This document shows positions 2,378 through 20,794 of a stretch of 64,000 nt of DNA, in pieces; the first letter of the stretch is position 1, and each line of letters begins with the position of its first letter. The notes below the pieces were generated by a model. That model did not search any database and had not been told where the DNA came from. It saw nothing but the letters and a program-made list of their open reading frames with translations. Source of the stretch: a virus. The stretch spans positions 1-64,000 of the IMG/VR virus record IMGVR_UViG_3300040801_000976. One strand, written 5' to 3'. The position numbers and the translations under genes are program-made.

Positions 2378-2644
2378 TTACTCCCATTTGGTTTCCCCTG
2401 TTTTCTTGTGCTTATATTGTATTCCATGCGGTGCGGTTTGTATTATCTCCCAATCAGGGTCGTAAACCGTATCGCCAACATGTTGTATAGGTAATAATTT
2501 TAAAAATAGTTCCTCCAATTCGGTAGCAACGCTCGGTGCATCGGGTGCATCCATTCCATCGCAATCTTCTCTTGGTATAGTTTTTACTACTTTGTAAATT
2601 TGTTCCCATACCTCGCTTCTTTGTATTCTGTTACTTTGTTCCAT
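2378..2644 (-). CDS. Small hypothetical cassette protein
   Basis: ORF track; starts in the attC loop and reads through R'' (LPIQHVGD). Confidence 0.7.
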   Translation of the reverse strand: MEQSNRIQRSEVWEQIYKVVKTIPREDCDGMDAPDAPSVATELEELFLKLLPIQHVGDTVYDPDWEIIQTAPHGIQYKHKKTGETKWE

Positions 2645-2655
2645 TTTATTAAGTT

Positions 2656-2900
2656 TTATCTGTTAATTATTTTTAAAATTATATACCCATACAGTTGATG
2701 CTCTTCATACCAACTACTTTCTCTTCCAGTATCAGGAAATATTACAGTATAGCTTTTTGTATTGTCTCCTCCGTATTGGTCTGCATAGCTTCCAACAACG
2801 ATAACATCTTTGTCATTTTCAAAATATTTCATCGTTGAACCCAAATCTTTAGCTATATGTACTAAATTTCCTTTTTTAAATTTTTGTTTTTTTTTTTCAT
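2656..2900 (-). pseudogene. Hypothetical gene frameshifted in an A11 run after the ATG, with its 3' end joined to the cassette array
   Basis: ATG at 2900 followed by 11 A; 9 or 12 A would restore MKK..QKFKKGNLVHIAKDLGSTMKYF in frame with ORF 2656..2844. Confidence 0.55.
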
Positions 2901-3025
2901 TTTATTCAAGGATAATAACACTAAATATTCTATTACTATAATGTTTAAATTATTAATTTATTTATATTATTTAAGTGGACGTGCCGGGCAATAGTTTATA
3001 ATTTGTTGAAATGAATTAAAATTCA

Positions 3026-3057
3026 TTTGGATATTTACAGGAAATGTAGTATATTTG
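3026..3057 (+). promoter_or_regulatory. Bacteroidota sigma-A type promoter for the homing endonuclease gene
   Basis: TTTG (3026-3029) - 20 bp - TATATTTG (3050-3057) fits the TTTG-N19-21-TAnnTTTG consensus; 27 bp before ATG 3085. Confidence 0.7.
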
Positions 3058-3084
3058 CAACTTATCCAAATAAATAATAACATT

Positions 3085-3504
3085 ATGAATATATCATATA
3101 TATCTGGATTTTTTGATGCTGATGGTTCTATAACTATGTGCCACAATTTAAAGAATGACAAATTTAAGACTATTAAAATAGATTTTACTAATATAGAATT
3201 AGAATTACTTAAATCCATACAATCTTATTTATTTGTAGAACATAATCTTAAGTTGTTTATATCTACAAAACCATCTAAAAGATCAGCACATTCTATTTCA
3301 TATAGTCTATCTTTATCAAGTAATCAAAAATGTATTACTTTATGTAAATTATTAAAGTCTAATCATCCAAAAAAATTACATAGAATAAATACTATAATTA
3401 AGTATCATGATAAAGTTACTAATAGAAATGGAAAATATACTGAACAACAAATTACGAGAAAGTTAGCTTATGAAAGGCTATTTTCCTCCACTAATTTTCA
3501 TTAG
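3085..3504 (+). CDS. Single-motif LAGLIDADG homing endonuclease, antisense within the intron
   Basis: N-terminal YISGFFDADGSI motif; 139 aa. Confidence 0.9.
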   Translation: MNISYISGFFDADGSITMCHNLKNDKFKTIKIDFTNIELELLKSIQSYLFVEHNLKLFISTKPSKRSAHSISYSLSLSSNQKCITLCKLLKSNHPKKLHRINTIIKYHDKVTNRNGKYTEQQITRKLAYERLFSSTNFH

Positions 3505-4581
3505 TGATCGGACTATATTATCATCCGTTCTGGATGTCACTCGCTATGGACTTACCGTAGTATTCCTAGTCTCTGAACCTGCTTACTTCTTCCAGTAAGA
3601 TTGGCTGCTGATTGGCATAGATTTTTTCTTTAGCTTCCCAGCAATTCAAGTGATTTTTTCATTGTATATTCCTATACAAGCGACCCTTATTTAAGTCGAA
3701 CCCGAGTCCAAACAATTTCCAACCCATTATAAAACAACCATTCTTTAGTGGGTTTTTCGGGGTTTCTACACAAATAGAGATAAACCCTTGTCTCGTATTA
3801 TTTGTTTTGCAGCTCTCCTTAGAATGGTTGTAAAATAATCAAGGCTATGCCACCTTTAAATGTACATAATTACTACGACAATGCAGGAATCGAACCTACC
3901 TTACAGACCTTCTCTATGCCGTACCTTGATTAAAACTAAACAATCTATTCCAAAACTAACTATAACACCTATTCTCTCAACTAAATGAGCTTAATCTATC
4001 ACCAAGTTCTTATGTTTATGGTATAGGCTTTAGGATACTTTCAATAATTAGAACTCTTGTAGATTCATTAGAGTTTTTTTAAAACATGCTTTTGAAGAAA
4101 TATTCGGCATTCTGATGATTCTCATACAATAGTTAATATACCATATGTAATTCCTCAATTTATTCTTCAGCCAGTGATATTATCCAGCATATTTTCCGTT
4201 AGCTATAAAACTCTTGTTAGAGTACAACGATTGACTAACATGATCATTGTTTAAAATAAAAGATAATCTGACTTAACAGCATTTACCAGATTGTACGCTT
4301 CAGACATAGTGAATTATCAACTATGCTTGTAGTATCTTTTATTTATTTTAATTGAGTTGACAGCGCATACCTAATAATTATAGCATCGCAACCGTTTAGG
4401 ATGAGTATGTGCAATATGGCTCAATGTTAGTAATTAATAGTAATAAGTATTGGATAGACCACTTAACCCAACTTTTAACGTCCTTTTATGAACTTGTACT
4501 TCTTACCATTAAATTACCCTTGTAGGATATTTCCTACTGCGTTAATATTTAAGCTATCGCTGACGTGGTTTGATTTCACGT

Positions 4582-4767
4582 TTAATAAATATCAATTTCA
4601 GTTGCATCACAATCAGAAGTAAATCTTCCATTACCTCTGTAGTTTAATTCTTTTTTAAAGATACTAATCCATAACCCTCTTTCATAATCAGTATCAAACT
4701 TAATTCTATTATTTTCAATACAGTTTATTATGATAGAGTTCTTTAAAACTTGGTAAAGGGTTAACAT
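4582..4767 (-). CDS. Hypothetical protein (possibly a frameshifted C-terminal part of the upstream gene)
   Basis: ORF track; overlaps 4715..5047 by 53 bp. Confidence 0.4.
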   Translation of the reverse strand: MLTLYQVLKNSIIINCIENNRIKFDTDYERGLWISIFKKELNYRGNGRFTSDCDATEIDIY

Positions 4768-5165: not shown

Positions 5166-5689
5166 TTTAAAATAACCAACACCAATAGCTAATTGGAATG
5201 ATATTTATTGTCACCTGACACGCTGGCTTTACAACTCACAGATTGTAGCCCTAAGAGCTAGAACATATCATCAATCTTCTAAATTACAGTAGCTAACTGT
5301 TTGAGTAATTCTAAGTACTTTTTACATTGTGCAACAACTTAGATTCTATTTCAATAATTACTCTATTTATTTGATTTGTTGGTTATTTATACTTTAAAAA
5401 CAAAGCTACTTTGAGAAATATTAATTGCTTCTACTTCCCTTTATTACCAAATATGGTCTACATTGATTCTCTTACTCCATAGCTTTTAAAGTAGTCATTC
5501 TTTATGGTTCAATCAGCAATAAAGGCAGGTTACAAGCCTGATAATTCACAATTAATATCAACCAACATTTTCTCTCAACTCTCCAGTTGATTTATGATAG
5601 TTATAATGCAATAACCGCTTAGAAATAAATTTCCGCGCTCTTATTATTTGAAAACTTGATTAGTAGCTTTGTTGTTATTTATTTTTATA

Positions 5690-6167
5690 CTATAATAATG
5701 GTTTTGCTTGATGAATTAAATCATCGAATGTTTTAGAGAATTTATCTCTTAATTCTTGGGTTTTGAAAGTCAATACCCCCGAACAACCAGCCTCCTCCCC
5801 CAACCCTTTTTTTGTTATTATAAAAATAAATAATATATTTTATAGTACCATCTTCCCAATCAGGCTTCCAACCACCATTCCAAATATCTCTAAATTTAAT
5901 TAATTGCATTAAAGCTAAAAATGCTTCAGCGTATTCTATGGATGTTATTGTATTAATATCTATTCTTACATCTCCAATACATTCAATAATAGATCCATTT
6001 GAACTGGAATAATAACAAACCTCAGGTAAAAAAGGTAAACATTCTTCATTACTTAATACCAACGGTGTTTCTTTTTTCTTTTTAAAAGATATATTACCAT
6101 CAGATAAATTAGACTTATCTAAATCTATCCCCACACCATCAGATATTTCAAAATTTATGTGTTTCAT
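5690..6167 (-). pseudogene. Hypothetical gene with an apparent frameshift in the A/G runs near 5775-5815
   Basis: Track ORF ends in low-complexity KKRVGGGG; the alternative frame continues VLTFKTQELRDKFSKTFDDLIHQAKPLL to TAG at 5690. Confidence 0.55.
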
Positions 6168-20720: not shown

Positions 20721-20794
20721 AGCGAGGTAGAGCAGTTGGTCAGCTCGTCAGGCTCATAACCTGGAAGTCGTAGGTTCGAGTCCTACCCTCGCTA
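20721..20794 (+). tRNA. tRNA-Met(CAT), initiator-like
   Basis: Acceptor AGCGAGG/CCTCGCT, D-stem GAGC/GCTC, anticodon arm TCAGG-CTCATAA-CCTGG, T-arm GTAGG-TTCGAGT-CCTAC; CCA not encoded. Confidence 0.95.

Follow-up and report, generated by a model that had tools for sequence, protein, structure and literature searches.

A group I intron in the T loop of a tmRNA-type 3' half in a putative crAss-like phage genome

A stretch of 64,000 nucleotides (nt) of viral DNA, positions 1 to 64,000 of IMG/VR record IMGVR_UViG_3300040801_000976 (hereafter the window), carries on its minus strand a complete group I intron that splits the T loop of an arm resembling the 3' half of transfer-messenger RNA (tmRNA). 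The intron spans 3693 to 2989 (705 nt; its last base, G2989, is the omega G), and the strand reads TTTGGAC-TCGGG-TTCGACT, then the intron, then CCCGG-CACGTCC-A. The intron, its family and its insertion site are secure. By homology, the exon is a tmRNA-type 3' half and the intron belongs to a known lineage that invades the tmRNA T loop. The exon alone is not a tmRNA. That the arm belongs to a working two-piece tmRNA, with its coding piece off this incomplete contig, is the likeliest reading, to which we give about an even chance. The host genome, to judge from its sequence, is that of a distant crAss-like phage whose host is a member of the Bacteroidota: the nearest relatives of its TerL are crAss-like phages, at 24-30% identity. 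Searches with neighbouring proteins gave no relatives.

The catalytic core, P1 to P9 (3703-3489, minus strand), matches the Rfam group I intron model RF00028 (Intron_gpI) over its full length (model positions 1-253) with 90.5 bits (E 2.3e-23; gathering score 50), and the same result was obtained from a search of the whole genome. The match depends on permissive filters, as a default gathering scan with fast filters missed the intron; the default Rfam scan of the window returned a tRNA-Met at 20721 and nothing else. P1 is formed by exon CGACU and intron GGGUCG (3686-3681), with a U3694.G3685 wobble at the 5' splice site, and both the pairing and the splice-site U.G are invariant in all 8 aligned homologues. 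In this eight-sequence alignment, 29 of the 53 predicted pairs have changed on both sides with the pairing kept; covariation is seen in P2, P3, P4-P6, P8 and P9, and the intron is far beyond chance. Its boundaries (5' end TAAATAAGGGTCGC, 3' end CTATTG at 2989) are set by P1, the terminal G and the rebuilt T stem: once the exons are joined, the T arm is UCGGG-UUCGACU-CCCGG, a 5-bp stem with one U.G pair and a 7-nt loop. The 3' end, of the form AAC..ATTG, resembles that of introns from the Saprospiraceae family described below. The full-length RF00028 match, the P1 helix with its U.G and the final G bear out the anatomy and coordinates of the complete group I intron proposed in a sequence-only reading of this DNA. 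The covariance-model check suggested there has now been run, with a score above the gathering score under permissive filters, and the junction predicted there, GACT/CCCGG, is of the type used by the homologues, including intron-less phage alleles.

On the 5' side of the intron, a UUUGGAC linker (3712-3706) directly precedes the T stem, as in tmRNA 3' tRNA-like halves. It is followed by the first T-stem strand UCGGG (3705-3701) and by the T loop UUCGACU (3700-3694), with the 5' splice site, located by P1, after U3694. Exon 2 starts with the second T-stem strand CCCGG (2988-2984), which pairs with UCGGG through one U.G and four G-C pairs, and continues into the acceptor 3' strand CACGUCC (2983-2977) and the discriminator A (2976); CCA is not encoded. 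The T stem covaries in homologues (ACGGG/CCCGU, GAGGG/CCCUC, GCGGG/CCCGC, GCGAG/CUCGC), and the conserved features of the 3' half are all intact, namely GGAC, a paired T stem, UUCGACU, U70, C71, C72 and A73. The arm accordingly has the composition of the 3' tRNA-like half of two-piece tmRNAs (GGAC, T arm, xxxxUCC, A), and the intron has that of intron-form genes: it lies within the T loop, and joining its flanks restores a loop of 7 nt on a stem of 5 bp. The motif TTGGACNCGGGTTCGACT was found in at least 118 IMG/VR stretches; with the crAss-like phage cr4_1 (NC_055893), 119 contexts were examined. Among the matches listed, ARAGORN calls a tmRNA in 86 of the 119, of which 32 are permuted. Because the motif sits in called tmRNA genes, the split arm is taken to be tmRNA-type, as the sequence-only reading had it, and the 3' strand xxxxUCC-A with U70 and A73 agrees with this.

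Intron-form tmRNA genes of bacteria, whose T-psi-C loop holds a group I intron, were reportedly described by Williams in 2002. We searched RF00028 in 151 genomes from the family of a genome titled 'uncultured Saprospiraceae bacterium'; 34 of them gave a match, and 30 loci were fetched. Five of the 30 are tmRNA genes with CTGGAC GCGAG TTCGACT on one side of the insertion point and CAGAGGGTCGCC on the other, sharing with the window both the subsite and the P1 helix (CGACU/GGGUCG). After splicing by script, two of the five are called by ARAGORN as standard tmRNAs, with the tags GNTQYAMAA and GNSYALAA; in the other three the exon-2 pattern gave no match. The window intron is 60-65% identical in the core to the bacterial and phage T-loop introns compared, and it has in common with the bacterial ones a short element after P7 and a GAAA-capped P9. 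One anticodon-loop group I intron was seen as well, in genome G001. Introns of that kind belong to the same ribozyme class and also interrupt a tRNA-shaped RNA, but there the site is the anticodon loop and here it is the T loop.

Passages of PMC11915505, to which all our statements on that paper are confined, report 883 unique tmRNA T-loop introns at four subsites; 36 of the 883 carry homing endonuclease genes, either after P9 or close to P7.1, and one minor subsite is confined to Saprospiraceae. With 883 sequences catalogued, the notion that T-arm introns of tmRNA are rare, on which the sequence-only reading relied, is outdated. The same-site introns from the Saprospiraceae family fit the Saprospiraceae-only subsite, and the site in the window probably corresponds to 'position 8' of that paper. 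The locus resembles the bacterial intron-form genes in site class, in the U at position -1, in the omega G and in the rebuilt T arm, and its endonuclease gene, after P9, occupies one of the two places reported for bacterial introns. It differs in that the host genome is a phage rather than a bacterium, in that its exon is not a complete tmRNA, and in length, the 705 nt of the window intron standing against no bacterial T-loop intron above 700 bp in those passages. Its endonuclease gene is antisense, whereas the orientation of the bacterial ones is not given there.

A blastn search against GenBank phages returned 33 records, several of them crAss-like, which match in the intron core only. In one of them, cr4_1, the arm reads TTTGGAC ACGGG TTCGACT, followed by the intron (74.9 bits) and CCCGT ATGCTCC A, and the intron holds an antisense open reading frame (ORF) for an HNH endonuclease. 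Three IMG/VR contigs (L024, L055 and L071) carry intron-less alleles that are exactly the ligated junction predicted for cr4_1; intron-plus and intron-less alleles thus coexist among cr4_1-like phages. In L055, ARAGORN finds the 3' half, then about 92 nt, then a 5' half GGGGCAT with G3.U70, and the tag GNTSYVMDYTRLAA. When spliced by script, cr4_1 and locus L289 are called as permuted tmRNAs with the tags GNTSYVMDYTRLAA and GNTSYVMDYTRLVA, respectively. Another IMG/VR contig, L335, has an intron-less permuted tmRNA with a 3' strand identical to that of the window (CACGTCC-A) and the partner GGGCGTG. In record G152 (L086 5758-6540 and L314 1501-1620), the intron-split acceptor piece and the coding piece are about 2.0 kb apart, with protein genes between them and the 5' half downstream of the arm. 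This arm at first looked orphaned, and ARAGORN called a permuted tmRNA (tag GKLSISPYALLSDRAA) only once the pieces were joined in script. The two pieces of a phage tmRNA therefore need not adjoin.

All of these crAss-like two-piece loci (cr4_1, L289, L297, L305 and G152) have the same split arm, TTTGGAC-NCGGG-TTCGACT, intron, CCCGN-NNNNTCC-A, with the same intron site as the window. Also as in the window, the 3' part of the intron holds an endonuclease gene in antisense orientation, and the locus sits in a leftward early region rich in non-coding RNA. The endonuclease is, however, of the HNH type (in cr4_1, and in G152 as read by eye) rather than LAGLIDADG, and the insert near P7 is longer than in the window intron. 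The 5' half and tag of these loci lie 90 nt to 2 kb downstream, whereas none was found in the contig of the window. A 25-nt exon-1 pattern had no match in IMG/VR, which yielded no intron-less allele of the window's site, and a 19-nt pattern had none in IMG/VR or genome_contigs. The match of a 22-nt pattern to contig L125 is a chance one in an unrelated high-GC phage. A scan of genome_contigs with a P1 pattern gave at least 120 loci, and the 123 matches listed are all chance or tRNA.

Several further elements were seen in phage records. Twelve IMG/VR phage contigs (L020, L034, L046, L049, L069, L072, L087, L094, L096, L099, L101 and L117) have a tmRNA-type T arm that ARAGORN leaves uncalled, with a perfect 5' partner 313-650 nt upstream of it, and resemble unusually long standard-order phage tmRNA genes. 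Directly upstream of the acceptor piece in L086 is a tRNA-shaped gene (5480-5720) with the acceptor strands GTGGAAT/ATTCTAC, the T arm GGGGGTTCGAATCCTCC and about 150 nt inserted in the anticodon region. About 1.4 kb upstream of the tmRNA locus of cr4_1 there is a RAGATH-9 RNA match of 134 bits (L001 3931-4092, minus strand), and weak RAGATH-20 and RAGATH-22 matches occur at L001 2965-3094.

The T-loop-invading intron follows the seventh base of the T loop in this tmRNA-type 3' half, which in two-piece genes is the 'acceptor piece'. On the two-piece reading, the locus would be transcribed leftward, the intron would fold into P1-P9, and an exogenous G would attack after U3694; omega-G2989 would then dock, and ligation of the exons would rebuild the T arm and CACGUCC-A. 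Copies of this site that lack the intron would acquire it through the enzyme encoded by the antisense LAGLIDADG gene. The off-contig coding piece would bring a GGGCGUG-like or GGACGUG 5' strand, GGnUUUUGACAG, a strand pairing with the bases before UUUGGAC, and then the tag. Splicing, homing and the existence of the partner are what we infer here. The contig is linear and 80% complete according to IMG/VR, and it ends 2,975 nt downstream of exon 2. With the spacing seen in G152 and the contig end so near, the partner could therefore lie off the contig.

Upstream of the arm, 870 nt are without an ORF. Contigs from three metatranscriptome libraries (depth about 10; one sample, one study) cover, within 2700-4600, only the ORF-free stretch 3748-4533: one library gives 3748-4521, another 3759-4533, and the third 3757-3917 and 3904-4529. 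A DNA-type run of the same sample (depth about 3) spans 3488-3964. For 3748-4533, a stretch that matches no Rfam family, this coverage points to a single abundant RNA some 780 nt long or to more than one RNA. Two structures were predicted in this region by folding, both on the minus strand: a tRNA-like three-way junction with the T arm GUAGG-UUCGAUU-CCUGC (3923-3874), and, directly upstream of the arm, an 11-bp helix, ACAACCAUUCU/AGAAUGGUUGU (3831-3821 with 3744-3734), enclosing a 76-nt interior. The only relative of the ORF-free stretch is a metagenome contig, L124, which shares 4550-4425 (89% identity) and 3934-3833 (98% over 102 nt) and is without window positions 4425-3934. The conserved 3934-3833 segment holds the internal tRNA-like junction, and L124 retains the 11-bp helix, around an interior unrelated to that of the window. 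At 1282-1366, L124 has a tRNA-like element with D and T arms and an acceptor stem of 7 bp, in which a short CAU-loop hairpin replaces the anticodon arm; neither ARAGORN nor Rfam calls it.

A number of results weigh against a two-piece tmRNA. ARAGORN finds no tmRNA on the unspliced, the script-spliced or the whole-contig sequence, and the Rfam tmRNA families give nothing on 2600-4600 at E values up to 10. The partner was sought as a 7-mer complementary to CACGUCC followed by a GGnUU..GA element, a pattern that in a control recovers a 7/7 partner in 13 of the 17 phage loci missed by ARAGORN; in the contig of 128,786 bp it returned no 7/7 partner, nor any 6/7 partner that was credible. No conserved tag frame was detected, that is, neither an Ala-Ala-type ending nor a frame shared with L124. 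The downstream distance to the partner is only about 90-100 nt in cr4_1-like phages and L335, and where the window has the arm L124 has its self-contained tRNA-like element, not a tmRNA half. The T stem of the window has a U.G where homologues have Watson-Crick pairs. There is, finally, no RNA contig over 2700-3747 and there are no splice joints, in contig data from one sample that are uninformative on splicing.

Within the contig, moreover, a whole-contig pattern search revealed no D-loop analogue of the usual form for the split arm, and neither the 2,975 nt beyond exon 2 nor the remainder of this 80% complete record holds a 5' half with G3.U70 plus coding piece. Exon 2 is followed by AT-rich DNA and then by protein-coding sequence; neither shows remains of a coding piece. 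No plausible acceptor stem of 7 bp with fewer than two mismatches, as specified in the passages of PMC11915505, was found within the contig. Locally, just one sequence is a candidate 5' acceptor strand: GGGUUGG (3725-3719, minus strand), which aligns with the corresponding strand of the L124 element. It makes 5 of 7 pairs, leaving 2 mismatches, and is disfavoured: a local cloverleaf containing it folds at -3.8 kcal/mol, whereas the T arm by itself reaches -6.3. A 6/7 candidate, GGACGTT at 4483, was rejected, as it is GAACGTT in L124, whose 3' strand differs, and the giant standard-order tmRNA that it would delimit (4483-2976) owes its pairing to an artefact of the sequence cut point. The tag frames AAKQIIRDKGLSLFV and GIEKVCKVGSIPALS were likewise dropped, neither being conserved in L124. 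An ORF-free structured stretch ahead of a four-tRNA array, at L339 1025-1340 (genome about 98.8-99.1 kb, minus strand), was also considered as coding piece and set aside, having no matching strand and no Rfam match. The locus is not demonstrably a tmRNA, as ARAGORN is negative with and without the intron, the Rfam tmRNA models are silent, and neither a 5' strand nor a tag was found. The G3.U70 alanine identity proposed in the sequence-only reading holds for one side only: U70 and A73 are in place, but, as no 5' acceptor strand, tag or ARAGORN call was found, the pair itself is only half present.

We are doubtful, though not dismissive, of the idea that the arm is an orphan relic, whose coding piece was lost or never acquired, so that what remains would be the intron and, as its own homing site, tmRNA-type flanks of about 20 nt and 14 nt. 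The ligated product would in that case form a short hairpin that plays no part in ribosome rescue, and the flanks would persist through the selfishness of the intron and its endonuclease, P1 being all that splicing requires. The missing partner is what such a history predicts, and the similarity to tmRNA is limited to 3694-3716/3718 upstream and 13 nt downstream; the makeup of the DNA beyond exon 2 and the U.G pair in the T stem point the same way, as does the minimum-free-energy fold of the ligated exons, a hairpin UGGAC-T arm-GUCCA of -12.6 kcal/mol. Yet the universally conserved bases of the 3' half are all still intact, an unexpected state after long decay, and a partner is present in every other phage example examined, namely cr4_1, L289, G152, L335 and those 13 of the 17 ARAGORN-missed loci; the contig, too, is incomplete, with its end close by. 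Alternatively, the arm could be the 3'-terminal tRNA-like module of the upstream RNA of about 780 nt, an RNase P/RNase Z signal setting its 3' end, into which the intron was transposed from a tmRNA gene while the T arm and 3' strand were converted to the tmRNA type. The layout of L124 lends this some support, with the arm as one cassette in an array of processed RNAs: a full tRNA-like element follows the 11-bp helix where the window has the arm, window 3725-3709 aligns with the 5' part of that element, and the RNA contigs end at 3748-3759, shortly before the arm, where the DNA-type contig continues. We nevertheless regard it as unlikely, given that GGGUUGG pairs at 5 of 7 positions and is energetically disfavoured, that the L124 alignment across the arm is short and L124 a single relative, and that RNA contigs from one sample cannot place RNA ends.

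Two further readings would give the spliced RNA a task without a coding piece from the phage. The acceptor half might be kept on purpose, as an alanine-identity tRNA-like RNA that would either pair in trans with a coding piece from another source or act as a decoy for SmpB or alanyl-tRNA synthetase and so stop ribosome rescue in the host, while the LAGLIDADG enzyme would cut the intron-less ssrA of the host or of a rival; this strikes us as improbable. More improbable still is a stand-alone tmRNA without a coding sequence (CDS), a decoy that would bind SmpB or alanyl-tRNA synthetase once spliced and block trans-translation in the host. CDS-less forms are on record: the passages of PMC11915505 count 9 of the class 'Standard, no CDS' and 72 of the class 'Permuted, no CDS', and there the form of mycobacteriophage DS6A is reported to inhibit E. 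coli tmRNA. Like the window arm, the DS6A RNA is phage-borne and consists of a tRNA-like part only, with no tag; but it has both acceptor strands and no intron, as against a 3' strand only, split by an intron, in the window. U70, C71, C72 and A73 are intact, as a decoy would have them, whereas there is no stable acceptor stem and no D-loop analogue of the usual form.

The endonuclease gene of the intron is a 139-residue ORF on the plus strand (3085-3504), identified in the ORF list and by Pfam and phrog comparisons. It runs antisense to the intron, not in the sense direction implicit in the sequence-only reading, and lies after P9, its final 16 nt overlapping the P9 region. Residues 6-93 of the 139 pass the Pfam LAGLIDADG_1 (PF00961) cut-off marginally (23.6 bits against 23.1), and the match to phrog_5046 has an E value of 2e-9. 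The enzyme might also attack the ssrA of the host or of a rival, as suggested in the sequence-only reading; the one indirect hint of this is that cr4_1-like phages include both intron-plus and intron-less alleles. A TTTG-N-TAnnTTTG sequence, which we take to be the Bacteroidota-type promoter consensus, is found by pattern match at 3026-3057 (plus strand), 28 nt before the ATG, and is a candidate promoter. The window has 5 such matches against 2.96 expected, which alone is not significant. Sites resembling sigma-70 promoters are no commoner than in shuffled sequences, and the same scan found no terminators. Outside the window, the contig has a second group I intron (G000:C1:127528-127829, minus strand; 82.9 bits) in an apparent DNA polymerase gene, with a sense-oriented LAGLIDADG-type ORF directly upstream.

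Genes with T-loop introns make up the third tmRNA gene form known. The passages of PMC11915505 report that form for bacteria, and Table 3, as far as those passages go, has no 'permuted plus intron' class. A literature search, in which that paper was covered by the passages cited, turned up no account of a T-loop intron in a phage tmRNA. The kind of intron is thus known from bacteria, and the new aspects are the phage setting, the acceptor piece as host and the antisense endonuclease gene. ARAGORN being negative here and the Rfam tmRNA models silent on cr4_1, ribosome-rescue genes of phages are under-annotated. Together with its phage relatives, the locus shows that one intron lineage circulates between the tmRNA genes of Bacteroidota and crAss-like phages, that its phage members interrupt the acceptor piece of two-piece tmRNA genes, and that it repeatedly carries endonuclease genes on the opposite strand.

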